A DNA stretch of 50,980 bases from Planctomycetota bacterium (GTDB lineage: Bacteria; Planctomycetota; Phycisphaerae; WQYP01). Under the pieces are notes generated by a model. That model did no database searches and was not told the origin of the DNA. It was given only the letters and a program-made list of their open reading frames with translations. Position numbers and translations under genes: made by a program. Position 1 is the stretch's first letter, and each line of letters opens with the position of its first letter. Location of the stretch: assembly GCA_021804985.1 (NCBI GenBank), contig JAJZGD010000003.1:1-50980 (forward strand), written 5' to 3'. This document shows, one piece after another, positions 11,291 through 36,174 of this stretch.

Positions 11291-13276
11291 TTACATTTCA
11301 TCCAGCACGGCAATGCCGAGCAGATCACGCAGGCCAACCTGCAGAACCGCCGCGGTTACACGGCAAAGAATCAGCCGACTGCTGACGGTGGCGGGTTGGG
11401 GCGCCTTAAGCACCGGGCATTGCTCATAAAAGGCTGAAAAAAAGCCTGACAGCTCATAGATATAAGTGCAAATATGGTGGGGCTTTAAATCGCGGGCCGC
11501 GGCATCGACGGCATCGGCGAATTTGAGCAAATGCCGGGCGAGATTGATTTCCGCCGGCTCGATTAAATCCAGCCGGGCGGGCGCGGCATCCATCGCACCG
11601 GCCTTGCGAAAAATGCTGCAGATTCGCGTGTAAGCATATTGCAAATACGGGCCGGTGTTGCCATCCAGGGCCAATATCCGCTCCCACACAAATTCATAAT
11701 CGCCCGTGCGATCCTGTTTAAGATCGGCATATTTGATCGCCCCGATCCCGACGGCCGCCGCGATGTGATGGCGCTGCGCTTCCGGCAGCGATGGATTTTT
11801 TTCCGTCACCACGCGGCCCGCCAATGCCTCGGCATGATCCAGCAATTCCCGCAGCTTGACGCTTTCGCCGGAACGCGTTTTAAATGGCTTGCCATCGGCG
11901 CCGAGCATAGATCCAAACGGCGCATAAATCATATCTACCAGATGGCCCGTTTCGGGATGAACATGCCAGCGCATGGCGCGGGCGGTATCAAAAACCATGG
12001 AAAAATGCTGCGCCTGCCGGGCGTCGGTGGTGTATATCAGTCGATCCGCATGCCACGACGCATGCAACGGCAATTGGTCTTCCGGCCGCTGTTTGTCTTC
12101 CATGATCCGAAAATGCAGGGCCGCTAAATCAGTGGTGGCATAGAGGAAGGCGCCGTCCCCCTTCTGGATAATCAATGGAAACGGCTTTTTATCTTTGTCT
12201 TCATACCCCGGCAGAAATACGCAAAGGGCGCCTTGTGAAATAGCTGCAAAAGGCTTAACCACCGGCGACGGAAGTTGTGCATCGGCCACGCGCTCGGTGG
12301 CCTGCGGGCTTTGCAGCGCTCCGGCGGCTTCAAGCTGATCGATGGCCGGAAGATGGCTGAAATCTGCGGGCGCCCCGTCGCGCCCCAGCGGCTCGCGCAG
12401 CGCGGTTTGGCTGCCCACGCCGCCGACCTCAAGGGTATTTTTAATTTGCTCGACAAGATTCGGCAGCCGGCCAGCGTAAAAGCTTTCCCCACGGTCGTCG
12501 GCTTCGGTCAGTTTCAAACCCAAGCGCTGAAATATTTCCTGCGCATGGCGCCGACTTTCCCGGCGAATCTGCTGCCAAAGTTCCACGGCCTGCGATTGAC
12601 CATTTTGCAGGTCCACAACGGCGCGCCGGGCTTCGAGCGCAAATTGCGGGTCGGTTTTATCCCGTTGCGAAGCTTGCTTGTAATAGGCGTCGAGGTCCTC
12701 AATGGGGGCAAGCGCTCCGTCGGCAAGTTTCATATCCTGAGCGTGGCGAATCAGCATTCCGAATTGCGTGCCGAAATCTCCCACATGATTTTGACGCACC
12801 ACCGTATGGCCGAGGAACTCAAGAATGCGGCTGATGGCATCGCCGATGATGCTGCTGCGCAGGTGTCCCACGTGCATTTCCTTGGCGATGTTGGGGCCCG
12901 CATAATCAACCACTACGGTTTGCCGATGGGCCGATTTTGCGACGCCGGCTCGGGCGAGCGCCTGCGGTTCGGCCGCGATGGCCTCAAGCGTGCGGCCGAT
13001 ATGGGCGGTCGTCAGGCGAAAATTAATAAATCCCGGCCCGGCGATGGTCGGAGGTTCGCAAATATCAGAAACGGAAAGATGTTCGACAATTTGAGCGGCC
13101 ACCTGCCGGGGCGCCAGCCCCAGCGATTTGCCCAGCGCCATGGCCGAGTTGCACTGGTAATCCGCAAACTTCGGATCGCCGGCCTTGACGATGACCCCGG
13201 CGGCATGCTGCGCGCCAAATGCACGGCCGATCGCCAGTGCACAGCGCTGTCGTAAGTCGGCCTCGATGGATATCAC
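11291..13276 (-). CDS. argS: arginine--tRNA ligase
   Basis: HIGH-type motif MHVGHLRSSIIGD and a DALR anticodon-binding C-terminus (YLQYAYTRICSIFRKA). It carries a ~55-aa low-complexity insertion before the conserved GALCVFL...IIQKGDGAFLYATTDLAA block. Confidence 0.95.
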   Translation of the reverse strand: MISIEADLRQRCALAIGRAFGAQHAAGVIVKAGDPKFADYQCNSAMALGKSLGLAPRQVAAQIVEHLSVSDICEPPTIAGPGFINFRLTTAHIGRTLEAIAAEPQALARAGVAKSAHRQTVVVDYAGPNIAKEMHVGHLRSSIIGDAISRILEFLGHTVVRQNHVGDFGTQFGMLIRHAQDMKLADGALAPIEDLDAYYKQASQRDKTDPQFALEARRAVVDLQNGQSQAVELWQQIRRESRRHAQEIFQRLGLKLTEADDRGESFYAGRLPNLVEQIKNTLEVGGVGSQTALREPLGRDGAPADFSHLPAIDQLEAAGALQSPQATERVADAQLPSPVVKPFAAISQGALCVFLPGYEDKDKKPFPLIIQKGDGAFLYATTDLAALHFRIMEDKQRPEDQLPLHASWHADRLIYTTDARQAQHFSMVFDTARAMRWHVHPETGHLVDMIYAPFGSMLGADGKPFKTRSGESVKLRELLDHAEALAGRVVTEKNPSLPEAQRHHIAAAVGIGAIKYADLKQDRTGDYEFVWERILALDGNTGPYLQYAYTRICSIFRKAGAMDAAPARLDLIEPAEINLARHLLKFADAVDAAARDLKPHHICTYIYELSGFFSAFYEQCPVLKAPQPATVSSRLILCRVTAAVLQVGLRDLLGIAVLDEM

Positions 13277-14380
13277 TTATTTCCTTTTTTTGCCGGGGGC
13301 GGCCTTCGCCTTGCGGGGCGCGGCAGCAGCTTTCTTTGCAGGCCCCTTTTTCCCGGCAGCTTTGCGTTTCAGCGTTTTTGTGGCTGCAGAAGTCTTTGCG
13401 CGAATTTTTCCACCCGCCAACTTTTTGGCTGCGACCGTGGGTTTCGGCCGCGCTTTACCGGTGGCCGCCGCTTTGCCTGCCGTGGCGCTTTTTTTTGATG
13501 ATGGCTTGCGGGCCGCAGGCTTTTTTGCCGGCTTGCCGGCCGTTTTAGATTTAACTTTCGGCTTGGCCTTGGCCGCCACCTTTTTGGCTACCTTAGTCCG
13601 TGCCTTGGCCACCTTTGCCGCCGCTTTCGGCGCCATTTTCGCCGCCGCCTTGGCCTTTTTGGCTGCGGGCTTGGCGGCTGATTTTGACTTCGCGCTTTTG
13701 GCCACAGCGGCCGGCTTCCGCGCCGGCTTCGGCGGAGCCGCAGGCGCGGGGATGCCTGGGGCATGCGGCGGCTGCGTTATATCGATGGTTATTGATTCGT
13801 AAATGATTGCATCATCGGTCGGTGGTGCCGGAATGCCGAGGAATGTGGCCGAATCGTCCGGTGTGCCGCCGGCTGGCACGCCCTCGGTGGAGAGCGGTTC
13901 TTCGAGCAGCAGCTCATCATCCATTTCAGTTGCGACTTCAATCGCTTCTTCAATGGCCTCAAGCGCGGATTGCGTTTTCTCGGTTTGCGGCCGCGTTGTT
14001 GCCGATTCGGGCAGGCCCATATCGATACGCGGGCAATCGCCCCAGAGAATTTCAAGATCGTAAAACGCGCGGCTCGCGGCATCAAACAAATGTACCACGA
14101 CATCGATGCAATCAATTAGTATCCACTTGGCCGTCTCGGTGCCGCTGATCCGCCATGGCTTAAAGCCCATTTTTTCGCCGAGGTCACCAATTTGGTCGGC
14201 CACGGTGCGCATCTGCCGCGCAGAGGTGCCGGTGGCAATCAGGAAGTAACGCGTCACGTGCGAGCGCTCGCTGACATTCAGCAGCACAATATCATGGCAG
14301 CGGGTGTGCGCCGCCAACTGCCCGGCCGCAATGGCGAAGGCTACATCCCCTTGGGCATTGGGTGTTTCCGGCATGATCAT
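13277..14380 (-). CDS. rsfS: ribosome silencing factor RsfS fused to a long acidic linker and a Lys/Ala-rich histone-H1-like tail
   Basis: The N-terminal ~115 aa (DIVLLNVSERSHVTRYFLIATGTSARQMRTVADQI...WILIDCIDVVVHLF...FYDLEILW) form an RsfS/iojap domain. The C-terminal ~170 aa are AAKKPA/KAKxK repeats. The stop directly abuts the argS start at 13276. Confidence 0.8.
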   Translation of the reverse strand: MIMPETPNAQGDVAFAIAAGQLAAHTRCHDIVLLNVSERSHVTRYFLIATGTSARQMRTVADQIGDLGEKMGFKPWRISGTETAKWILIDCIDVVVHLFDAASRAFYDLEILWGDCPRIDMGLPESATTRPQTEKTQSALEAIEEAIEVATEMDDELLLEEPLSTEGVPAGGTPDDSATFLGIPAPPTDDAIIYESITIDITQPPHAPGIPAPAAPPKPARKPAAVAKSAKSKSAAKPAAKKAKAAAKMAPKAAAKVAKARTKVAKKVAAKAKPKVKSKTAGKPAKKPAARKPSSKKSATAGKAAATGKARPKPTVAAKKLAGGKIRAKTSAATKTLKRKAAGKKGPAKKAAAAPRKAKAAPGKKRK

Positions 14381-25489: not shown

Positions 25490-25592
25490 GAGCCTGTCCG
25501 AGTAATCGCCGAGATTGCGATGGGCCTGCGATGGCCCGTACGCGCGGCGGAAGATCGAGCCGACTTTGAACAATGAGTCTGCGAGATGCGAT
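25490..25592. repeat. interspersed repeat family B, copy 2 (left border of the defence island)
   Basis: GAGCCTGTCCGAGTAATCGCCGAGATTGCGATGGGCCTGCGATGGCCC...GCGCGGCGGAAGATCGAGCCGACTTTGAA, homologous to 17008-17110. Confidence 0.7.
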
Positions 25593-25633
25593 CGGGTTCA
25601 TCGCGGCGGGCAACTGAGGCAGTGGAGATACCC

Positions 25634-28600
25634 ATGGCGCAGTCGGATATGACGTTTATCAGCAATGAGGCCGGCAGGACCTTGCGCGAACGCCTTGCCA
25701 CCTTGTTGGCGGCCGATACGCGCTTATTTGACTGCCTCGTGGGGTATTTCTACATCAGCGGCTTTCATAACCTTTACCCCAGCCTCGAAAACGTCGAGAA
25801 AATCCGCATCCTCGTCGGCCTCAGCACCGACGACACTGTCCGGAACCTGCTGCATGACGCCGCGCGGCCGTCGGATGAACCGTCCACCCTACGGTTCCAG
25901 TCCCATGCGGTGGTTGAGGAAAACATCCCTCACGCCATGCTCTGTGAACTTGAGAGGGCCGAATACACCGCTGAGGTCGAAACCGGCGTAACCAAATTTG
26001 TCCAGTGGATTCAATCCGGAAAGCTGGAAATCAGAGCGCATCCGTCCGAGAATTTGCACGCCAAAGTTTACATTATGACCTTCCACGATGGCGACAGGGA
26101 CGTCGGCCGTGTGATCACCGGCTCCAGCAATCTCACCCAATCCGGCCTGCAGGACAATCTGGAATTCAACGTCGAGCTTAAAAACCGCTCGGATTACGAC
26201 TTTGCCGCCGCTAAATTCAATGAACTTTGGGCGACCGCCGTGGAGGTGTCCAAACCCTGCGAAGCCGCCATCCTCCAGCAATCACCGTATGCGCAATTTA
26301 CCCCGTACGAACTTTACCTGAAATTCCTATACGAATATTTCCGCAGTGAACTTAACCGCCCCAAAGAGCTTGACGATCTTTATGTCCCCAACGGATTTAA
26401 AAAGCTGAAATATCAGGAAGAGGCCGTCCTGACCGCAAAAAAAATTCTGGAAGAATATGGCGGCGTATTTCTTTCCGACGTCGTCGGGCTTGGTAAAACC
26501 TACATGGCGGCCATGCTGGCCCAACAGCTCGACGGGCGCTCGCTGGTACTCGCGCCGCCGCACCTGATTGATGCCAACAACCCCGGCTCATGGCGCAACG
26601 TTTTTGGAGAGTTCCGCGTGCCCCATACCGATTTCGAATCGATTGGAACGCTGGATTCCCTTCTGCAGCGCGACACCGCCCGCTACAAAAACGTTTTTAT
26701 TGACGAATCGCATCGCTTCCGTAATGATGACAATCAAACCTACGCCAACCTCGCGCAAATCTGCCGGGGCAAGCGTATTATTCTGGTCTCGGCCACGCCG
26801 CTGAACAATACCCCCAATGACATACTCAGCCAGATCAAGCTGTTTCAGAATGGCGCCAACAGCACCATTCCCAACGTCCGCGACTTGGGGGCCTTTTTCA
26901 GCAAGCTTCAGGAAAATCTGCGCGGCCTCGACCGCCGCGAGCACCGTGACAAATATTTAAACGCCGTCCAGGAGAACGCCAGGACTACGCGCGAAAAAGT
27001 CCTTAAATACCTCATGATCCGCCGCACACGGGGAGAGATCCTGAAATACTACGGCGACGACCTTGCGTCGCAAGGCCTGAAGTTTCCCGCAGTCGCCGAT
27101 CCGCAGCCCCTTTTCTACAAACTCAACAAAGCCGAAAGCGGCGTTCTCGATTCCACCATCCGCCTGCTCACGCAGGATTTTAAATACGCCCGCTATAAGC
27201 AGCTGCTCTACTACCGCGGGCAGCGCGACCAAAAACAATCTCAGGGCCAGCAGAATCTTGCCAAGTTTATGAAAATTCTGATGGTCAAGCGGCTCGAAAG
27301 CAGCTTTCACGCCTTCCGCTCGACGTTAGGCCGCTTCATAGACACTTACAAGCGCGTTATCGCTGAATTCCACAAGGGTAACGTCTACATAAGCAAAGAA
27401 TACACCGATAAAATCTTCGACCTGTTGGAAAGCAACGATCACGACGCCATTCAACAACTGCTGGATGATGAAAAGGCTGAAAGGCTCAACGCCCGTGATT
27501 TCCTGGCGAATTTCATTACCGATCTTGAGAGCGATCTCGCCATCCTTGAAACCATCCATTCGGCTTGGAAAGATATTAAACGCGACCCCAAATGGGAAAC
27601 CTTCCGCGAAATCCTCCTGGCCGACAAACGGCTCAAAAATGCCAAGCTCATCATTTTCACTGAATCCAAAGAGACGGCCGAATACCTCGGCGCAAAAATC
27701 GCTGCCGAGGTTGATAAAAAAGTAATTGTTTCCAGCGGCGAATCCGATGAGGCCACCTACCGGCAGGTCACCGATAATTTTGACGACCGGGCCCTCCATC
27801 GCAAGGATGATTACCGCATCCTCGTTGCTACGGAAGTGCTTTCTGAGGGCGTCAACCTCCACCGCTCCAATATTGTGATTAACTACGACATTCCGTGGAA
27901 CCCCACCCGCCTGGTCCAGCGCGTGGGCCGGGTGAACCGCGTGGGCACCAAATTTGAAATCATTCACACCTATAACTTTTTCCCGACGGATGAAGGCAAC
28001 GACCTGATCAAACTCAAGGAAGCCGCCGAGGCCAAAATTCACGCCTTTATCGAGATGCTCGGTACCGATGCCCGCCTGCTTACCGATGGGGAAGAAATTA
28101 AATCACATGATTTGTTTTCCCAGCTGAATTCCAAAGCCGCCATCACGGGCGAAGATGAACAGCAGGAAACAGAACTTAAATATCTCACCGAAATCCGCGA
28201 AGTCCGCGATAAACAGCCCGACCTTTTCTCCCGCATCAAGCGGCTGCCGAAAAAAGCCCGCTCCACACGAGCCTGGCCCGCGCAAAAGGAAATCAGGCGC
28301 GAATTCGCATGCCCATCACTGGTGACTTACTTCCGCCAGGGGCGGCTGGATAAATTTTTCATTGCCGCTCCCCATGGCGGCCCCCAGGAGTTGGACTTCA
28401 TGGTCGCGGTCAAGCTCCTCCAGCCCGCGGATCCGGCGGAAAAACCGCTGCCGATTGCAGAAGGGTTTTACCATCTGCTGGATTTAAACCGCTCCGCTTT
28501 CCTGGCCGCCACAAGTGAGTCTGCCGCCGCCACCGGAAGGCCCGGCGGCGGTTCCCACGCCGTCTATATTCTCCGGCGGCTGGCCGCCCGGGAATTTCGC

Positions 28601-28861
28601 GGTTATCACGGCTTCACCGAGGAAGATGAGGCGTTCACCCAACAGGTCGCCCAATCATTCGCGGATGGCGCAATCCCAAAAATCACCGCGAAGAAAATTG
28701 CCCAATTACTGAAAAAAGAATCCGACCCGCTCAAAGTACTCAGCATTCTGCGCCGCGAAATTCCTACCTCGCTGCTTTCACCCACCCAATCCGCCCAGGC
28801 CGCCCGCGCCGCAAGCCCGCGTGAGGTGATTCTCTCTTCCATGCTGCTGGAGGCACCATGA
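25634..28861 (+). CDS. PLD-family (HKD) nuclease domain fused to an SNF2-family helicase
   Basis: The N-terminus has a single HKD motif, HAKVYIM...[10 protein letters not shown]. The SNF2 core shows GLGKT (motif I), DESHRFRN (II) and VSATPLNN (III). The C-lobe reads [14 protein letters not shown]...[23 protein letters not shown]. The start is taken at the ATG at 25634 ([12 protein letters not shown]); the ORF opens at 25586. Confidence 0.9.
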   Translation: [1075 protein letters not shown]

Positions 28862-28864
28862 ATC
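28814..28864 (+). repeat. 51-bp direct repeat, left copy (helicase 3' end / ATGA junction)
   Basis: AGCCCGCGTGAGGTGATTCTCTCTTCCATGCTGC[T]GGAGGCACCATGAATC. The same 51-mer with one mismatch is at 30266-30316, an offset of 1452 bp. Confidence 0.9.
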
Positions 28865-29049
28865 ACGATCAGTCCGGGCCAATCGCAAAGAAAACCCTCA
28901 CGCGAAAATTCGACGCGGGCCGATTTCTGGAATTTGTCGGCAAGCGGCTCAACACGGTGGGGCAAGCCAAGGCATACGCTCGCAATAGCCAATACGTCAA
29001 AAGCATACTTAGTGTTGCCGATAAAGGTCGTGGAAGGGGGGCGGCATGA
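28858..29049 (+). pseudogene. 63-codon remnant of a diverged methyltransferase N-terminus
   Basis: MNHDQSGPIAKKTLTRKFDAGRFLEFVGKRLN...NSQYVKSIL aligns with the MTase N-terminus MNRDQARNLVRETLTQKFDKGRFTALVGNLLN...NNQYVKDAF. Homology stops near 29010. There are ATGA overlaps at both ends, with the helicase stop and with the yhcG-like start. Confidence 0.65.
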
Positions 29050-30209
29050 TCAGAAGGCGTGACTCGCTGGCCGGGCCTAAGCCCAAAATCGCCGGCTACG
29101 AGGCGTTTCTGGCCGGCGTTACCGGCCTGCTCGAATCAGCCCGGCGCGGTGCCGCCCGGGCTGTTAATTCCCTCATCACCGCAACTTACTGGGAAATCGG
29201 CCGCCGCATGGTGCAATTGGAACAAGGTGGAGAATCGCGGGCCGATTATGGCGAATACCTCATGGACCGCTTATCCGCCGATCTTTCTGTGCGCTACGGT
29301 CGAGGCTTCTCCCGCCGGGCGGTCTATCAGATGCGGGCGTTCTATCTGGCATATCCGGCAATTGTGCAGACACCCTCTGCACAATTCGTCGCAACTGCCC
29401 AACTGCCTCCGGAGGTCAATCCGCTGATTGTGCAATCACCGATTGCACAATTGCCATCGCCGCGGTTCCCGCTGACCTGGACCCACTATGTGCGGATGCT
29501 GGCGGTCAAAAATGAATCCGCTCGAAACTTCTATGAAACCGAGGCCCTCCGATGCGGATGGTCCATCCGCCAGCTGGATCGCCAGATTGATTCGCTCTAT
29601 TACGAACGCACGGCCTTGTCAAAAAATAAGGCCGCCATGCTTGCCAAAGGCCGAAAAAAAAGTCCCGGCGACGCCGTTACCCCCGAAGAAGAAATCAAAG
29701 ACCCCTTCGTTCTGGAATTTCTACAACTCAAAGATGAATACTCCGAAACCCAATTGGAAGAGGCGCTCATCCGCCATTTGGAATCGTTCCTTCTGGAACC
29801 TGGCGATGATTTCGCCTTCCTTGGCCGGCAAAAGCGATTGCGGATCGACGACCAATGGTTCCGCGTCGATCTGTTATTTTTCCACCGCCGGCTTAAATTC
29901 CTGATCGTCATCGATCTCAAGACGGGAAAATTTACTCATGCCGATGCCGGCCAAATGCACCTGTATCTCAATTATGCCTCTGAACATTGGGTCCGGCCGG
30001 GAGAAAATCCGCCTGTGGGCCTGATTCTCTGCGCTCAGAAAGACGCGGCCATTGTTCATTATGCGCTGGAGAATTTGCCCAACAAAGTTCTTGCGGCGGA
30101 GTATAAAATGAAATTGCCCGATGAAGCCACCCTCGCCAATGAAATGGATCGCACGCGCAGGGCGCTGGAAATCAGATCAGTGCCCAGGCGCGGGGGCACG
30201 AAGAAATGA
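29046..30209 (+). CDS. YhcG-like PD-(D/E)xK nuclease domain protein (DUF1016 family)
   Basis: YWEIGRRMV, WTHYVRML, FYETEALRCGWSIRQLDRQI, DPFVLEFL and FLGRQKRLRIDDQWFRVDLLFFHRRLKFLIVIDLKTGKFTHADAGQMHLYLNY form the characteristic DUF1016 N-domain plus restriction-endonuclease-like core (D...DLK). Confidence 0.85.
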   Translation: MIRRRDSLAGPKPKIAGYEAFLAGVTGLLESARRGAARAVNSLITATYWEIGRRMVQLEQGGESRADYGEYLMDRLSADLSVRYGRGFSRRAVYQMRAFYLAYPAIVQTPSAQFVATAQLPPEVNPLIVQSPIAQLPSPRFPLTWTHYVRMLAVKNESARNFYETEALRCGWSIRQLDRQIDSLYYERTALSKNKAAMLAKGRKKSPGDAVTPEEEIKDPFVLEFLQLKDEYSETQLEEALIRHLESFLLEPGDDFAFLGRQKRLRIDDQWFRVDLLFFHRRLKFLIVIDLKTGKFTHADAGQMHLYLNYASEHWVRPGENPPVGLILCAQKDAAIVHYALENLPNKVLAAEYKMKLPDEATLANEMDRTRRALEIRSVPRRGGTKK

Positions 30210-30250
30210 GTACACCCCAAAGCATTATGCTCTATGCTGCAATCATGCGT

Positions 30251-30313
30251 GCCGCCCGTACAACCAGCCCGCGTGAGGTGATTCTCTCTTCCATGCTGCC
30301 GGAGGCACCATGA
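30251..30313 (+). pseudogene. 20-codon remnant of a helicase C-terminus
   Basis: [20 protein letters not shown] compares with the real helicase end [20 protein letters not shown]. Its TGA overlaps the MTase ATG exactly as at the left junction. Confidence 0.6.
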
Positions 30314-30316
30314 ATC
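30266..30316 (+). repeat. 51-bp direct repeat, right copy
   Basis: See 28814-28864. Confidence 0.9.
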
Positions 30317-33300
30317 GCGATCAGGCCCGCAACCTCGTCAGGGAAACCCTTACGCAGAAATTCGACAAGGGCAGGTTCACCGCCTTGGTGGGAAACCTGC
30401 TCAACCGCATCGATACGCAAAAAACGTTTTCCTGCAACAACCAATACGTCAAGGACGCCTTCAAGCCGCACGTGAACCGCTACGAGCGCATCGCAAAATA
30501 CACTGCGCCCGACCAACGCAAAATCGACATTCTGGTGGTGCACCTCACCGAAAACGCCAATCTCGGGCGCACCCGCACCGCATTGCGTAATTTCGTGGCG
30601 GATTATCTAAAAAACCGGGATCGCAAAGATGCGGCCCTGGTGGCATTTGTTTCTCCATCCGACTCGGCCTGGCGCTTCTCCTACGTCAAAATGGAATACG
30701 CCACCGTTGAAACATCATCGGGCGACGTTGCCACAGAAGCCCGCCTCACGCCCGCCCGCAGATTTTCCTACCTCGTTGGCCCCGGAGAAAGTTGCCATAC
30801 GGCGCAGACTCGCTTCGTATCGCTTCTGCAGGACACCACCAACAACCCAACGCTGACGGATATAGAAGCAGCCTTCAGCGTTGAGGCCGTCACCAGGGAA
30901 TTCTTCGCGCGCTACAAGGAACTTTTCCTTGCGGTAAAAGATGAACTCGACAGAATCGCCGCGGCCGAGAAGGCCATCCAGGGCGAATTCAGCCAACGCA
31001 AACTGAGCACCGCCGATTTTGCCAAAAAGCTCCTGGGCCAGATCGTGTTCCTATATTTCCTTCAAAAAAAAGGCTGGCTCGGCGTGGCAAAAGACGGTGC
31101 CTGGGGCAACGGCCCGCATAATTTTCTCCGTAAACTCGCCAACCGCGAATTCGTTAAATATGGCAATCTTTTCAACGATATCCTCGAACCACTCTTTTAC
31201 GATACCCTCGCCACCGACCGTGGCCATGAGGCGCTGTGTAAAAAGTTTAACTGCCGCATTCCCTTCCTCAACGGCGGCCTGTTCGAACCGCTGGGTGGCT
31301 ACGATTGGCGTAACACCGAAATCCTGCTGCCCAATGAATTGTTCACGAATACTCAACCGGTGGAAGAAGGCATCATCGGCACCGGTATTCTGGATGTATT
31401 CGACCGCTACAACTTCACCGTTAATGAAGCCGAGCCGCTGGAAAAGGAAGTCGCGATCGACCCCGAAATGCTGGGCAAGGTTTTTGAAAACCTGCTGGAA
31501 GTAAAGGAACGCAAATCCAAAGGTTCATTCTATACCCCGCGTGAAATTGTGCATTACATGTGCCAGGAAAGCCTGATTAACTATCTCGACACAGCAATCA
31601 ACGGCAATGGTAATGGTGACACAGGCATTCCTGCCTGTAAATTATCCCAGTGTGACACAGGCATTCCTGTCTGTGCCGGCAGTGATGCTGGTGCCCCAGG
31701 CATTCCTGTCTGTGCCCCACCAAAGGTACAGTGTGACACAGACATTCCTGTCTGTGCCGGCAGTGATGCTGGTGCCCCAGGCATTCCTGTCTGTGCCCCA
31801 CCAAAGGTACAGTGTGACACAGACATTCCTGTCTGTGCTGACGTTGATGTTGGCGTCCCAGGCATTCCTGCCTGTGCCTCGTCAAAAGCACAAGGTGACA
31901 CAGGCATTCCTGCCTGTGCCGGCAGTGGGAAAATTCACAAAACCACCCGCAATCTTCCCCATTGGACCAGAGAAGGCTCAGTCTATTGGACCACCTTCCG
32001 ACTCGCCGATTCCCTACCACAGGAAAAGCTCGATGCCTGGCGGGCGGAGCGGGAAATCTGGCTCAACCAACACCCTAAACCCTGGAGTGATGAGGATTGC
32101 AAAGAATACGACGCGATTTTCGACGAACGCCTGCAATCCTGGCTTGACGCCGGCTACGGTTCATGCGCCCTTATGCGGCCTGATGTCCGGCAAGTTGTGC
32201 AAGAGTGCCTGCTTCGCTTCGATGGCCAGCGGCTGCGGCTGCACGCCGCGGTCATCATGCCCAATCATATCCATTTGCTTCTCGAACCCCTTGTCGGCAA
32301 CGAATTGTCTGAACTCCTGAAGGGTATTAAAGGTGCAAGCGCCCGCAAAGCCAACCAAGCCTTGGGTAATACCGGGACCGCCTTTTGGATGGACGAATCT
32401 TACGACCACATTGTTCGCAGTGAGCGGCAGCGGCAACACCTTGTCCGCTACATGATGGAAAATCCCATCAAAGCAAATCTGCCAGCCGACCAATTTTGGC
32501 TTTACCAGTGTGACGGTGACACAGGCATTCCTGTCTGTGCCCCACCACAAACACAGACAAGAATGTCTGTGCCACGCTGTGATATCGAAACCCTTGTTCA
32601 CTCCGGCGACCAGGCGGCCCATTACGAAACCGCCCGCGTTGGAGGCACTACAAGTTACAGGGCTGAACTGCCGCCAGGCATCGAAAACAACGCGCGATCT
32701 CTGGATGAAGCGCTTGCCTCCATCACCGTTTGCGACCCCGCCATCGGTTCCGGCGCCTTTCCCGTCGGGATGATGCACGAAATTGTCCGTGCCCGCTCCG
32801 CCCTGACACCCTATTTCAACGATGTGGCCGAGCGCACCGCCTACCATTTCAAACGCCACGCCATTCAAAACTGCCTCTACGGCGTGGACATCGACCCCGG
32901 CGCGGTGGAGATCGCCAAGTTGCGGCTCTGGCTTTCGCTGGTGGTGGATGAAGAGGATGTCCAGCAGATCAAGCCGCTGCCGAACCTGGATTACAAAGTG
33001 GTGGTGGGCAATTCGCTGCTGGGCGTGGAAAAGACGCTGTTCAACCAAGAATTGTTCACCCGTCTGGAGGAGATCAAGCCAAAATATTTCGATGAAACAA
33101 ACAGCGATAAAAAGCACGAATACAGGAAGGAGATCAACCAACTTATCCAAGATCTCACCGACGGCCAAACGGCCTTCGATTTTGAGATTTATTTCTCGGA
33201 AGTGTTTCACCGTAACGGCGGGTTTGACGTGGTGATCGGCAACCCACCGTATTTGTTCGCAAGAAACAGTAAGGAAAAGGGGATTACCGCAGCGGACAAA

Positions 33301-34431
33301 AAAATCTACAACGGCACCTACATGCTCGCCGAATACCAGATAAACCTTTACCCGCTCTTCATAGAAAGAGGCACCGGGATACTAAGGGAAAGCGGCAGTT
33401 TCGCCTTCATCACGCCCAACAACTGGCTCACGATCAACACAAATGGCCTGCTGAGAAACTTTGTCCTGAACCGGTCGGAAATCACAATCGTCAATTTCTA
33501 CGCCCGCATGTTCGCCGGCGCGGATGTCGACAACTCAATAATCATCTATAAAAAATCCGCGGGGAAACGACGCATAAAACTCTTCGAGTACAGGAGCGGC
33601 CTGGAGCTCGTCAAGGAGGCTGATTGCGACTTCTTCCTGCAGCAACGCGACTCGATCATCAATATCGACGCACAGAAGGGTGGCCACGTTGCCGCATTAA
33701 TGCAAAAAATTGAATCCCGCGCCGACAGGCTCAGGGACGTTGCGGATGCCAGGGTCGGGCTTAAGGCATACCAGACCGGAAAGGGAAGACCACCACAGGA
33801 GAAGAAGGCCAAGGACGGGCGAATTTTCCACTCGGGCGACCAAATCGACGAAACCTACATCAAATACTTGGATGGCAGGGACGTGAGCCGGTACAGGCTG
33901 GGATGGGGAGGCGAATACCTCAAGTACGGCCGTCACCTTGCGGAACCGCGCACACAATTCAGGCTATTTTCCTCGAAGCGTATCCTCGTGCGCCAGATTC
34001 CGGCAAATCCGCCGTATTGTATCCACGCCTGCATCGCCGAGGAAACACTCCTCAATGACCTCAACTCAATGAACATCATCAATTCCCGCGAACCGGCAGA
34101 GCTTGTTCTGGGCATTTTGAACGCGCGGCTCACCTCGTTCTGGTTCGTCCACAGATTCGGCAAAATGCAGCGGCGAACGTTCCCGCAATTCAAAGTGAAC
34201 GAGCTCGCAGAATTTCCACTCCCCCGGGGGAGGGAGCGGCGGCAGGCCGAAATAATCCGCCTGGTTGGCGAGGCCATGTCGGCCAGGCGCAGCGACCCAG
34301 GGGCGGACATCTGTGCCATTGACCGGGAGATCGACCGAATCGTTTATAGCCTTTACGGCCTGACTCCCGAGGAGATCGCCATCGTCGAAGGGACAACCGA
34401 GGCGTCTGGCCGCGAGAAAAAAAAGAGCTAG
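30310..34431 (+). CDS. Eco57I-type (gamma-class) N6-adenine DNA methyltransferase with a TaqI_C-like target-recognition domain, carrying an in-frame REP/RAYT insertion
   Basis: Motif X GSFYTPREIVHYM (FYTP at 31528-31539), motif I CDPAIGSGAFP (from 32734), YGVDIDPGAVEIAKLRLWLSL, and motif IV GNPPY (33241-33252). The C-terminal TRD ends in the typical SLYGLTPEEIAIVE. FYTP and motif I are separated by ~398 aa, of which ~322 aa is the REP/RAYT segment. It is a single uninterrupted 1373-codon ORF. Confidence 0.9.
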   Translation: MNRDQARNLVRETLTQKFDKGRFTALVGNLLNRIDTQKTFSCNNQYVKDAFKPHVNRYERIAKYTAPDQRKIDILVVHLTENANLGRTRTALRNFVADYLKNRDRKDAALVAFVSPSDSAWRFSYVKMEYATVETSSGDVATEARLTPARRFSYLVGPGESCHTAQTRFVSLLQDTTNNPTLTDIEAAFSVEAVTREFFARYKELFLAVKDELDRIAAAEKAIQGEFSQRKLSTADFAKKLLGQIVFLYFLQKKGWLGVAKDGAWGNGPHNFLRKLANREFVKYGNLFNDILEPLFYDTLATDRGHEALCKKFNCRIPFLNGGLFEPLGGYDWRNTEILLPNELFTNTQPVEEGIIGTGILDVFDRYNFTVNEAEPLEKEVAIDPEMLGKVFENLLEVKERKSKGSFYTPREIVHYMCQESLINYLDTAINGNGNGDTGIPACKLSQCDTGIPVCAGSDAGAPGIPVCAPPKVQCDTDIPVCAGSDAGAPGIPVCAPPKVQCDTDIPVCADVDVGVPGIPACASSKAQGDTGIPACAGSGKIHKTTRNLPHWTREGSVYWTTFRLADSLPQEKLDAWRAEREIWLNQHPKPWSDEDCKEYDAIFDERLQSWLDAGYGSCALMRPDVRQVVQECLLRFDGQRLRLHAAVIMPNHIHLLLEPLVGNELSELLKGIKGASARKANQALGNTGTAFWMDESYDHIVRSERQRQHLVRYMMENPIKANLPADQFWLYQCDGDTGIPVCAPPQTQTRMSVPRCDIETLVHSGDQAAHYETARVGGTTSYRAELPPGIENNARSLDEALASITVCDPAIGSGAFPVGMMHEIVRARSALTPYFNDVAERTAYHFKRHAIQNCLYGVDIDPGAVEIAKLRLWLSLVVDEEDVQQIKPLPNLDYKVVVGNSLLGVEKTLFNQELFTRLEEIKPKYFDETNSDKKHEYRKEINQLIQDLTDGQTAFDFEIYFSEVFHRNGGFDVVIGNPPYLFARNSKEKGITAADKKIYNGTYMLAEYQINLYPLFIERGTGILRESGSFAFITPNNWLTINTNGLLRNFVLNRSEITIVNFYARMFAGADVDNSIIIYKKSAGKRRIKLFEYRSGLELVKEADCDFFLQQRDSIINIDAQKGGHVAALMQKIESRADRLRDVADARVGLKAYQTGKGRPPQEKKAKDGRIFHSGDQIDETYIKYLDGRDVSRYRLGWGGEYLKYGRHLAEPRTQFRLFSSKRILVRQIPANPPYCIHACIAEETLLNDLNSMNIINSREPAELVLGILNARLTSFWFVHRFGKMQRRTFPQFKVNELAEFPLPRGRERRQAEIIRLVGEAMSARRSDPGADICAIDREIDRIVYSLYGLTPEEIAIVEGTTEASGREKKKS
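31621..31918 (+). repeat. array of 8 REP hairpins (consensus CACAGGCA-TTCC-TGCCTGTG) including an 81-bp tandem repeat
   Basis: Hairpins at 31621-38, 31656-75, 31697-712, 31737-56, 31778-93, 31818-37, 31859-74 and 31899-918. The stem variants CACAGACA/TGTCTGTG keep pairing. Units starting at 31650, 31731 and 31812 have an exact 81-bp (27-codon) period. Confidence 0.85.
32529..32580 (+). repeat. REP doublet downstream of the RAYT core (one direct, one inverted)
   Basis: 32529-48 is CACAGGCA-TTCC-TGTCTGTG. 32561-80 is CACAGACA-AGAA-TGTCTGTG, whose loop is the reverse-orientation version (complement TTCT). Confidence 0.8.
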
Positions 34432-34441
34432 GAATTGACCA

Positions 34442-34654
34442 ATGAAAATCAGCCGTGTGCAGATTAAAAACTTCCGTAACTTCGCCAGCCTTGATGTGGC
34501 CCTTGGCGAACACGCCGTTATCGTCGGCGAAAACAAGGTCGGAAAATCGAATTTCCTATTCGCACTGCGATTGATTCTCGACCCGTCGCTGCCAGATACG
34601 GCAAGAAAACTTCGTGACGAAGACTTCCGGCCTTGGGAAAGGGGCGACCGGTGA
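34442..34654 (+). pseudogene. N-terminal stub (70 codons) of an OLD-family / AAA_15 ATPase (GajA/OLD-like)
   Basis: MKISRVQIKNFRNFASLDVALGEHAVIVGENKVGKSNFLFALRLILDPSL is the canonical OLD/AAA_15 start with Walker A GxNxxGKS. The frame stops at codon 70, and no Walker B or TOPRIM region follows in any frame. Confidence 0.7.
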
Positions 34655-34707
34655 GCAGGTACACACGGCGTCTAACGCGCCCCGGCGCGCCACGCTCCAT
34701 CCTTACC

Positions 34708-36174
34708 ATGACCGCAGCGCAGGCACGCACGTTTTTCCTAAAGACAGAGAGCTACTGCAATTTTGACCTACCAGGGTACATCCAGTTCGGTTCCCTGTTG
34801 GAGGCCGTCGCCGAGCAGATGCGCGGTAAGGAGCTTCGCGCTATGTCCCTGAACCCTCGCGAGCACGAGGGCGTGAATTACACGGTGCAGTCGAACAAGG
34901 ACGGCCGATACGCGTGGCGGCCGCTACAGCTGATTCACCCCGCCCTCTACGTCTCGCTGGTGGACAAGATCACCACCCCAGAAAATTGGGGGGCGATAAC
35001 ACGCCGATTCATTGATTTCCAAAAATCATGCAAACTCAGATGCCTGGGCATCCCGCTGCAGTCCCGGGCGGGGGGCAAGGACAAGGCCGCCCTGATCGGC
35101 AGCTGGTGGCAAGAAATAGAGCAGAGATCGATCGAGCTCGCCATCGAATACGGCCATCTATTTCACGCAGACATCAAGGGTTGCTACGCCGCGATCTACA
35201 CGCATTCGATCGCATGGGCGCTACACGGCAAGAACGAGGCAAAAAGCGCCCGGCGCAATAAAGAACTCATCGGGAACGCCATCGATGCGCAAATCCAAGG
35301 CATGCGTCAGGGCCAGACCAACGGAATCCCCCAGGGGTCAGTATTGATGGATTTCATCGCTGAAATGGTTCTCGGCCACGCCGACCTCGATCTAACCACC
35401 CGCATTGGGGCCGCCGGAATTAGTGACTACCACATCCTGCGCTACCGCGACGACTACCGGGTGTTTACAAACAACCCCCGGGATGGCGAACAAATCCTTA
35501 AGCTGCTGACGGAAGTTCTCATCGGCCTGGGCATGCAGCTGAACACGGCCAAGACAGGGGGATCGTCGCAGGTCGTGAAAAGCTCCGTAAAGGCCGACAA
35601 GCGGTCATGGATCCGGGGGAAACAGTGGGACCGGAACCTTCAAAAGCACCTGCTCATAATCCACGCGCACGCTGAGGATTTCCCAAACTCCGGCAGCGTT
35701 GTTGTCGCCCTTGGGCGCTTCCACAAGAGAGTGTATGAGGAAAAGGCTTTCCAAAACGTCCGTGCCCTGATCAGCATCGTTGTTGACATCGCGTACGGCA
35801 GTCCGAGGGCATTTCCGGTGTGCGCGGCAATCATCAGCAAGCTACTAACCGCGATCAAGGAGAAGGCAGAACGGGAAGAGATCGTGGGGAATGCCCACAC
35901 CAAGATGTCACAGATGCCCAACACCGGCCACATTGAGTTGTGGCTCCAGCGAATCAGCTACGCGAGCGGTTTGGGCGTCGCCTACGGTGAACCGATATGC
36001 AAGCTCGTTGAGGGCGAGGCCACTGGCCTTTGGAACAGCGACTGGATCAAGGACGAGAACCTGAAGGCGGCACTCAACCCGTCCGGGATTGTTAGCAGGC
36101 CAAGGCTTCGCGCGGCCAAGCCTGTCATCGCACCGGAGGAGATAGCGGTCTTCCCGGAGGAACGGTACGAGTGA
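34708..36174 (+). CDS. stand-alone reverse transcriptase, Abi/UG (defence-associated) type with a helical C-terminal domain
   Basis: RT motifs: 1/2 KDGRYAWRPLQLIHPALYV; A FHADIKGCYAAIYTHSI; B NGIPQGSVLMDFIAEMVL; C ILRYRDDYRVF (YxDD); D/E GMQLNTAKT. About 200 aa of predicted helical C-terminus follow. The start is taken at the ATG at 34708 (MTAAQARTFF); the track ORF opens at a TTG at 34633. Confidence 0.85.
   Translation: MTAAQARTFFLKTESYCNFDLPGYIQFGSLLEAVAEQMRGKELRAMSLNPREHEGVNYTVQSNKDGRYAWRPLQLIHPALYVSLVDKITTPENWGAITRRFIDFQKSCKLRCLGIPLQSRAGGKDKAALIGSWWQEIEQRSIELAIEYGHLFHADIKGCYAAIYTHSIAWALHGKNEAKSARRNKELIGNAIDAQIQGMRQGQTNGIPQGSVLMDFIAEMVLGHADLDLTTRIGAAGISDYHILRYRDDYRVFTNNPRDGEQILKLLTEVLIGLGMQLNTAKTGGSSQVVKSSVKADKRSWIRGKQWDRNLQKHLLIIHAHAEDFPNSGSVVVALGRFHKRVYEEKAFQNVRALISIVVDIAYGSPRAFPVCAAIISKLLTAIKEKAEREEIVGNAHTKMSQMPNTGHIELWLQRISYASGLGVAYGEPICKLVEGEATGLWNSDWIKDENLKAALNPSGIVSRPRLRAAKPVIAPEEIAVFPEERYE

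Follow-up and report, generated by a model that had tools for sequence, protein, structure and literature searches.

A predicted YhcG nuclease gene embedded in the helicase/methylase overlap of a Planctomycetota defence system, with a 202-nt target duplication and flanks resembling a type I restriction–modification operon

A 50,980-nt stretch of a Planctomycetota genome (GCA_021804985.1, contig JAJZGD010000003.1, positions 1–50,980, forward strand; GTDB Phycisphaerae; WQYP01), referred to in its full length as the window, carries a yhcG gene of the DUF1016 family between the two core genes of a defence system, a PLD-SNF2 helicase and a type IIG-like methyltransferase (MTase). The arrangement probably, if by no means certainly, records a single event: a yhcG fragment of the kind found in type I restriction–modification (R-M) operons would have been inserted once, long ago, into the helicase/MTase overlap, with a 202-nt duplication of the target, and the locus would later have been reshaped by drift, gene conversion and loss. 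The features on which this account draws are listed below; loci compared with the window carry L numbers, nt and aa stand for nucleotides and amino acids, and ORF for open reading frame.

25586–28861, + strand: PLD (HKD)-SNF2 helicase, upstream core gene of the host defence system (Pfam PLDc_2, SNF2-rel_dom, ResIII, Helicase_C; PADLOC 'HKD+Snf2', 7e-51)
28799–29000, + strand: left copy of the 202-nt target, with 20 codons of the helicase 3' end, the ATGA overlap, and MTase codons 1–48 as a remnant (repeat search, same register; junction alignments)
28814–28864, + strand: left 51-nt core, with GGAGG Shine-Dalgarno sequence and ATGA (50/51 identical to 30266–30316)
28858–29049, + strand: 63-codon chimeric relay ORF, MTase N-terminal remnant (codons 1–48) plus hsdM-like C-terminal tail (codons 49–63), ATGA at both ends (translation; homology of the tail to its counterparts in L163 and L170 and to the hsdM C-terminus of L171)
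29001–30250, + strand: inserted cassette of 1250 nt, comprising an hsdM-like 3' leader (~45 nt, including the yhcG Shine-Dalgarno sequence), yhcG, and the first ~16 codons of the putative former downstream gene (1250 + 202 = 1452; leader and 3' flank homologous to the type I context of L171)
29046–30209, + strand: yhcG, predicted DUF1016-family PD-(D/E)XK nuclease, PADLOC candidate PDC-S02 (Pfam DUF1016_N 1e-38, YhcG_C 3e-55; PADLOC 3e-131)
30206–30313, + strand: 35-codon chimeric relay ORF, N-terminus of the putative former downstream gene (MSTPQSIMLYAAIMRA) plus helicase C-terminal remnant, ATGA at both ends (translation; alignment with the start of the 164-aa protein of L171 and with the helicase 3' end)
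30251–30256, + strand: GCCGCC microhomology at the right, apparently illegitimate joint (three-way alignment; same hexamer at helicase positions 28799–28804 and in the L171 type I context)
30251–30452, + strand: right copy of the duplicated target, comprising the helicase 3' remnant, the ATGA overlap and the true MTase 5' end (repeat search; junction alignment)
30266–30316, + strand: right 51-nt core, which would provide the Shine-Dalgarno sequence and coupling site of the functional MTase (50/51 against the left core)
30310–34431, + strand: type IIG-like Eco57I-family N6-adenine MTase, downstream core gene, 1373 aa, with TaqI_C target-recognition domain (Pfam Eco57I 2e-39, TaqI_C, Y1_Tnp; PADLOC REase_MTase_IIG 4e-241)

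A repeat search of the window returned a direct repeat of 155 nt at 77% identity (28799–28953 and 30251–30405; spacing 1452) that extends in register to 29000 and 30452 (repeat families D3 and D8), so that a 202-nt duplication brackets yhcG. One contiguous target segment is thus directly duplicated around the insert, as in the product of a Campbell-type crossover. Within it lies the 51-bp direct block, with one mismatch and 1452 bp between its copies, that an earlier reading of this DNA (the original prediction) had correctly described. ATGA overlaps occur at all four gene boundaries (28858, 29046, 30206 and 30310), linking helicase, 63-codon relay, yhcG, 35-codon relay and methylase in a chain of five ORFs. 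The duplicated structure is not an assembly artefact, because it is also present in a second, independently made assembly of the strain (L001; GCA_027349885.1) and in loci from other samples (L162–L167 and L170).

The host of the insertion is, by its domain content, a two-gene defence system with a predicted role in restriction and modification. An HKD/PLD nuclease domain is fused to an SNF2-type helicase (Pfam PLDc_2, SNF2-rel_dom, Helicase_C; PADLOC), and an Eco57I-family N6-adenine MTase with a TaqI_C specificity domain adjoins it (Pfam, PADLOC); the pairing of a PLD-SNF2 helicase with an Eco57I or Cj0031-type methylase has been described previously (PMC9881135). Homologues of the helicase were found at 52–81% identity in 80 genomes; these 80 genomic loci were drawn from a very large helicase family, and 74 of them hold both helicase and MTase. 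The helicase tail (PREVILSS...), the GGAGG Shine-Dalgarno sequence and the ATGA together form the best conserved stretch of the helicase–MTase family, and the two genes appear to be translationally coupled through the ATGA overlap across the family. Direct coupling is the rule in 53 of the 74 loci, 34 of these by an exact ATGA overlap, and the directly coupled loci include the closest relatives of the window (L002 at 81%, then L003, L004, L005 and L061). The remaining 21 hold other cargo in exactly the same slot, mostly with 4-nt overlaps at both ends: MazF, a distant YhcG, DUF4062 or Schlafen with HATPase_c_4, ORF6N, RhuM, Fic, NYN, a 23S-IVP-like four-helix protein with a zinc ribbon, PIN with PDDEXK_3, and Gp49/HTH (HigBA-like) pairs. 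Because such varied cargo occupies this exact position, the helicase/MTase junction is a general cargo slot, in keeping with the embedding of defence genes described in the literature. In L044, the helicase–MTase gap is occupied by a tandem array of ~66-nt units that are 97–98% identical (13231–13419).

Within this slot, yhcG lies between helicase and MTase with all genes on the + strand, and homologous systems exist that lack it. It is therefore an accessory gene, a secondary insertion exactly at the helicase/MTase overlap, and the earlier claim that it is an inserted cassette, present or absent at precisely this point, is borne out by the comparison of homologous loci. The gene product has the DUF1016_N plus YhcG_C architecture, both domains scoring above the Pfam gathering thresholds, and an intact D...(D/E)xK catalytic motif (RVDLLFF...VIDLK), encoded at 29860–29925 in a stretch that reads FRVDLLFFHRRLKFLIVIDLKTG; the same motif is found in its relatives. 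A literature search found no biochemical or phenotypic assay of nuclease or anti-phage activity for YhcG/DUF1016 proteins. A simple scan of the cassette, with counts at the level of shuffled sequence that leave only its terminator result informative, found no promoter-like site and no + strand terminator-like site, the repeat search of the window found no attC-like inverted repeat at either cassette end, and no integrase is encoded nearby, the neighbouring ORFs being a Na/H exchanger, a GajA fragment, an AbiP2 reverse transcriptase and RNase III. The apparently promoterless yhcG cargo, as one link in the chain of ATGA overlaps, is probably expressed with the host operon, without polar damage to it.

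The clearest indication of where the insert came from is offered by L171, in which a 76%-identical YhcG is encoded inside a type I operon in the order hsdM–yhcG–164-aa protein–hsdS. Upstream of yhcG in the helicase–MTase loci, ~40 nt align with the native hsdM 3' end of L171; the hsdM-type reading frames end in EVKALLARGVEGEAP in L171 and in LALPVKGVEGEAS in L163 and L170, in each case directly before the stop. The L171 ending matches the HsdM C-terminal pattern found upstream of many YhcG relatives, a pattern that the window-type leader fits as well. Downstream, the ~48 nt that follow the yhcG stop correspond in alignment to the start of the 164-aa protein of L171 (L171 MSTSQNMTLAVAIVGAA; window MSTPQSIMLYAAIMRAA), and in L171 this stretch continues as a single hydrophobic segment. 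The arrangement is not peculiar to L171: yhcG directly follows hsdM in at least 14 of 80 YhcG relatives, several of which run into hsdS through ATGA overlaps. The insert therefore appears to resemble DNA from a type I R-M operon, comprising an hsdM 3' end, yhcG and the 5' end of the next gene.

These alignments also change how the two small ORFs are to be understood. The 63-codon ORF had been taken as an MTase remnant; its codons 1–48 are indeed a diverged MTase N-terminus (21/46 aa identical to the resident MTase; 61% nt identity outside the core), and its last 15 codons are instead the hsdM-like leader of the cassette. Similarly, some 60 nt before the right core had been read as helicase-derived, and only ~15 nt, from 30251 onward, are; the first ~16 codons of the 35-codon ORF come, by the L171 alignment, from the former downstream neighbour of the cassette. 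A derivation of the whole 35-codon ORF, including its 'STPQS', from the helicase tail 'SPTQS' was considered and rejected, since that alignment assigns those codons to the neighbour gene. The right copy changes from neighbour-gene to helicase sequence within GCCGCC, a hexamer common to the donor-like sequence, the helicase and the right copy itself, and the left switch point falls directly after CCAATACGTCAA. Because both insert ends are non-homologous and type I-like, and are joined at short microhomologies, the founding event looks like an illegitimate, microhomology-type insertion with target duplication, and not like homologous crossing-over with a circle that bore the junction.

That this event happened once is suggested by the distribution of its joints. 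The nearest YhcG proteins (76–86% identity) lie in the same five-ORF architecture (L162, L163/L164, L165–L167 and L170), so that at least five diverged Planctomycetota loci, counting the window and L001 as one, have the same architecture and junctions, with helicases that are mutually only 72–78% identical. The remnants are homologous across all occupied loci, and this extends to the part of the 63-codon ORF that is not MTase-derived and to the opening codons of the 35-codon ORF; the joints are therefore the same throughout, and their identical positions point to one ancient founding event and not to repeated homing. Among metagenome YhcG relatives at 57–68% identity, none of 80 lies within the helicase–MTase family, which together with the hsdM-adjacent relatives noted above leaves little room for the supposition that the cassette homes to this junction. 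The closest YhcG relative of all (86%), in L168 (391–1768) and also in L169, is truncated at its 5' end, and the fragment of the neighbour gene, the helicase remnant and the ATGA junction are still attached to it; that junction runs into the N-terminal fragment of a different DUF1016 gene, and the whole assemblage lies upstream of a distant (26% identity) helicase/HipA_C/HIRAN/MTase system.

The small ORFs are decaying remnants that drift about neutrally, as had been predicted, and not conserved genes: the ratio of nonsynonymous to synonymous substitution (dN/dS) is ~0.5–1.5 for the remnant ORFs, compared with 0.15–0.47 for MTase N-termini that are functional, and a frameshift interrupts the L162 copy. 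Between the MTase remnant of the window and the resident gene, differences at first, second and third codon positions number 15, 15 and 24, which fits a distant allele or drift alike. Comparison of the remnant with the family had been expected to identify a donor allele. It names none, as the remnant stands at about the same distance (20–23/48 aa) from every family member, the resident included.

The near-identity of the two 51-nt cores, at first taken as the relic of a crossover, appears to have a later origin. Identity between the cores within a locus is 50/51 in the window, 49/51 in L165, 41/51 in L163 and 31/51 in L162, and orthologous cores of the window and L165 agree at 41–42/51; clade orthologues that lack any duplication already match the core copies of the window at 42–48/51. 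As the copies in the window and in L165 are closer to each other within the locus than orthologous copies are between these loci, the sequence pattern is that of concerted evolution by repeated gene conversion between the copies. Across 15.6 kb of comparison, the only differences between L001 and the window are in tandem-repeat copy number and at five single-nucleotide polymorphisms (SNPs) clustered in the region of the left copy, three of them just upstream of the left core (28792, 28799 and 28813) and two inside it (28832 and 28837). At four of the five, the window has the base of its own right copy, a pattern that reads as a signature of gene conversion between the copies. An assembly artefact is an unlikely source of this cluster, the longest exact stretch between the two copies being only 18 nt with an L001-type left copy.

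Cassette loss, as well as homogenization, is consistent with the phylogeny. In a neighbour-joining tree of the helicase and the MTase N-terminus, the window, L165, L002 and L003 form a clade with 96% bootstrap support, with the cassette-bearing L162 and L163 outside it and L005 basal. This clade has in common a rare in-frame RAYT-like insert in the methylase (described below), and all four combinations of presence and absence of cassette and RAYT insert occur. At least one precise removal, by repeat-by-repeat deletion or allelic replacement, or else an extra gain, must therefore have taken place; the nesting of empty loci among occupied ones suggests that the cassette was lost precisely in some lineages. 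The expectation that the repeats are recombinogenic is thus upheld by the conversion signature and by this nesting. The yhcG ORF itself has been mobile as well. Those of L171 (1290–2475) and L163 (7980–9165) are 93.3% identical in nucleotides from 21 nt before the start to the stop, while their flanks are far more diverged, a sequence pattern that suggests at least one recent exchange of the ORF between the type I-embedded copy and the helicase–MTase cassette. Vertical co-divergence of YhcG with its host had looked congruent in identity quartets, and was undermined by the YhcG tree and by this 93% pair.

Taken as a sequence of steps, the insertion would have begun in an ancestor of one Planctomycetota sub-clade, where a fragment of ~1.25 kb, made up of ~15 codons from the hsdM end, yhcG and ~16 codons from the start of the following gene, entered the helicase/MTase overlap. 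Both joints would have been illegitimate, the right one lying within GCCGCC, and 202 nt of target would have been left duplicated on either side, possibly through template switching, through capture of the fragment between staggered or sister-chromatid breaks, or through a small tandem duplication followed by insertion. Since the helicase 3' end doubles as the ribosome-binding and coupling site of the methylase, such a duplication may have been the only way to keep both genes intact. Thereafter the remnants would have drifted almost neutrally, while the core was homogenized, the yhcG ORF exchanged and the cassette lost precisely in some lineages. Several points weigh against this reconstruction. 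The founding event is old and the true donor is not in hand, L171 being a relative of the donor context; moreover, the L171 YhcG nests inside the helicase–MTase clade, and the direction of transfer rests on the 'nativeness' of the flanks and not on the tree. The left joint is placed only to within ~10–15 nt, its microhomology is weak, and sequence cannot tell which molecular route made the 202-nt duplication. The trees are simple neighbour-joining trees of demonstrably recombining genes, and a pattern resembling loss would also arise if the whole architecture had spread horizontally between related loci through double crossovers in the helicase and MTase genes. Finally, translational coupling and any function of YhcG are read from sequence.

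Beyond this family, direct duplications of 45–350 nt flank yhcG at six independent targets, counting the window junction; the others are as follows, two of them in housekeeping genes (enoyl-CoA hydratase and CstA).

L146, 53–322 and 1962–2231 (the same in L139): hsdM 5' end
L153, 875–1222 and 2585–2932: enoyl-CoA hydratase 3' end
L155, 81–410 and 1701–2132: ParB_N gene 5' end
L095, 282–353 and 1655–1726: NOV_C gene 3' end
L087, 483–531 and 1797–1845: CstA 3' end

Flanking duplications were found at 6–7 of 74 YhcG loci against 5 of 626 control genes of the same contigs, and are thus about ten times commoner at YhcG loci. One control gene with flanking direct repeats (55 nt, 89%; L096, 10950–12068) encodes an Mrr-type restriction endonuclease, and the control rate of 0.8% may itself include similar cargo insertions. 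Differences between the duplicates of L146 (3/2/21 by codon position) and L153 (17/8/43) fall mainly at third positions; the duplicates are on this evidence two diverged functional alleles, as homology-guided import would leave. In-situ duplication is accordingly rejected as a general rule for YhcG loci, and may still account for the founding event of the window. L139, a 1.7-kb contig with 43-nt identical ends, was considered as a circular form of the cassette and rejected, since it aligns to both hsdM copies of L146 and is an assembly break at the repeat.

Closely related yhcG ORFs also occur in different targets with almost no flank in common. This raises the broader idea, to which we would give only a small chance, that YhcG/DUF1016 genes are widespread 'plug-in' cassettes that have no recombinase of their own and move between operons by microhomology or one-sided homology. 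An ORF with little around it would form such a module, its short leader closing the upstream reading frame at the start codon of the module and its stop overlapping the next start; it could have spread among type I R-M systems, helicase–MTase systems and even housekeeping genes, long target duplications preserving the host genes, and its own nuclease might stimulate the spread. If so, it would provide a general path by which genes for defence come to lie inside other defence systems.

The original prediction had attributed the locus to a Campbell-type crossover: a circle carrying helicase-C', junction, MTase-N' and yhcG would have entered at the junction, homing to this family of systems, with the 51-nt identity marking the crossover. 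Insertion-duplication by a single crossover would yield precisely this layout, the core, as the most conserved block, would be the likeliest crossover site, and the allelic duplicates of L146 and L153 point to homology-guided import with duplication within the YhcG family; a duplicated structure, once present, could also loop out as a circle and re-enter empty relatives. We nevertheless consider this explanation unlikely. At neither end does the insert continue into a donor junction allele, both ends being type I-operon-like DNA at microhomologies; the shared joints speak for one origin and against repeated independent integrations; high core identity is found in some loci only and is locus-specific, as concerted evolution would have it; and the closest YhcG relatives outside the family lie in type I operons and other targets. 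No circle is on record, and the protein collection holds no deletion variant of the window strain, its helicase cluster consisting of only two member sequences. Recombination might instead have been one-sided, with two sequential steps involving linear DNA, each anchored by homology at one end, illegitimate at the other, and leaving one remnant. A precedent is offered by L095, which contains the NOV_C gene, yhcG, 12 codons of the usual downstream gene of yhcG and a 3' remnant of the recipient NOV_C gene, while the related L110 and L113–L116 have the same gene order without the remnant; orphan modules in type VI secretion system (T6SS) and Rhs loci have been proposed to arise in this way (PMC5361080). 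The allelic duplicates of L146 and L153 would fit this mechanism too, as would the decayed helicase C-terminal remnants that directly precede the MTase start, with other cargo genes, in L025, L070 and L075. For the window, however, it would require two successive rare events in different lineages and passage through a state in which the MTase was disrupted or a helicase remnant was present, and type I-derived ends would have given no homologous anchor for the first capture; we regard it as rather improbable here.

A more active role for the cassette is conceivable, in which the YhcG nuclease cuts its target and stimulates its own break-induced insertion with long target duplications. The six duplicated targets, their excess over control genes and the occurrence of closely related ORFs in unrelated flanks would all be expected of such self-promotion. 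Yet there is no recombinase, no terminal repeat and no conserved target sequence, more than 90% of YhcG loci lack a duplication, and the allelic duplicates and type I-derived flanks fit ordinary recombination together with selection for non-disruptive insertions; further, helicase remnants accompany Fic and ORF6N cargo as well, so that the footprint is not specific to YhcG. We hold this possibility to be very unlikely. It is scarcely credible that no insertion occurred at all and that yhcG and the two small ORFs are integral, conserved parts of a five-gene system: the same five-ORF ATGA chain is retained in several diverged loci, but all three genes are missing from 53 of 74 family members, the nearest relatives included, and the small ORFs are recognizable as pieces of MTase, helicase, hsdM and neighbour gene, evolve about neutrally and in L162 include a broken copy. 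A single, illegitimate insertion of type I-operon-like DNA with target duplication thus remains the account that we favour.

Two further features near the locus deserve mention. The MTase ORF contains an in-frame insert of ~320 aa (window positions 31600–32560) with eight hairpin repeats (ACAGGCATTCCTGCCTGT) spaced at 36, 39 or 42 nt, all multiples of three, which yield repeats of the peptide (C)DTGIPVCA; next come an IS200/RAYT-like HUH tyrosine-transposase domain and one more hairpin, so that eight lie upstream of the domain and one downstream. The domain matches Pfam Y1_Tnp (1e-6) and the NCBIfam model REP_Tyr_transpos at 64 bits, under the 80-bit cut-off, and has the HUH motif NHIHLL; the insert looks like a REP/RAYT unit that is read through inside the methylase. 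Versions at 77–86% aa identity occur in L002, L003, L061 and L165 and others at 43–47% in L044 and L055, and most family members have none; the L001 MTase has one 81-nt unit fewer (1346 aa against 1373 aa). Downstream of the MTase (34442–36174), a complete AbiP2-type defence reverse transcriptase gene directly follows, and overlaps, an N-terminal piece (70 codons) of a GajA-type (Gabija/OLD) ATPase gene (PADLOC labels). This resembles a second instance in which a defence gene has been displaced by another; the repeat search gave no flanking repeat in this region. L162 has an intact pair of OLD-like ATPase and UvrD-like helicase after its methylase, and a tblastn comparison of its GajA and GajB proteins with the window gave no match, so that Gabija homology downstream was rejected.

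That defence genes become embedded in one another is known, and the locus shows a variant of this in good resolution. Embedded genes have been used for discovery, as 'guilt by embedding' (Payne et al. 2024, bioRxiv 10.1101/2024.01.29.577857); TgvAB is embedded in a type I R-M system of V. cholerae (PMC11411939), and DUF1016 genes have already been noted that adjoin type I and Cj0031-type IIG systems or lie within them (PMC9881135). How embedded genes arrive is a question left open in the literature, and the window offers a readable fossil of one such event, in which both joints can be mapped, a 202-nt duplication would have rescued both overlapping host genes, and chimeric relays keep the stop–start chain unbroken. 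Gene conversion, and probably clean loss as well, would then act on the duplicated junction, which may allow accessory defence genes to be gained and lost reversibly and free of scars. As flanking duplications recur at other YhcG loci, such footprints should be systematically findable, and usable to date and trace the traffic of embedded genes.

Like PrrC in EcoprrI, TgvAB and other embedded defence genes (Payne et al. 2024), yhcG is nested between core genes in the same orientation and is absent from most homologous systems; unlike in embedding studies, which leave the mechanism open and speak of a 'genomic sink', the sequence of the locus itself here reveals where the joints lie, what was duplicated, what type of donor context was involved and what happened later. 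A similar parallel, with similar limits, may be drawn to the orphan modules of Rhs, contact-dependent inhibition (CDI) and T6SS loci (Kirchberger et al. 2017, PMC5361080), where a module likewise enters beside a conserved gene end, short remnants stay behind and repeats later recombine. There, the incoming DNA has a homologous anchor and displaces the old module downstream, whereas in the window both insert ends are non-homologous, nothing is displaced and a two-gene junction is duplicated. Campbell insertion-duplication shares the direct target duplication around the insert, reversible by repeat-by-repeat recombination, and differs in that the insert ends here are not contiguous with a junction homologue, the origin appears to be single and ancient, and a circular form has not been observed. 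Integron cassettes, finally, resemble yhcG as promoterless single-ORF cargo that is read from the host operon in many contexts, but yhcG comes with no attC-like inverted repeat and no nearby integrase, and its insertion is marked by a 202-nt target duplication at microhomologies and not by site-specific recombination.

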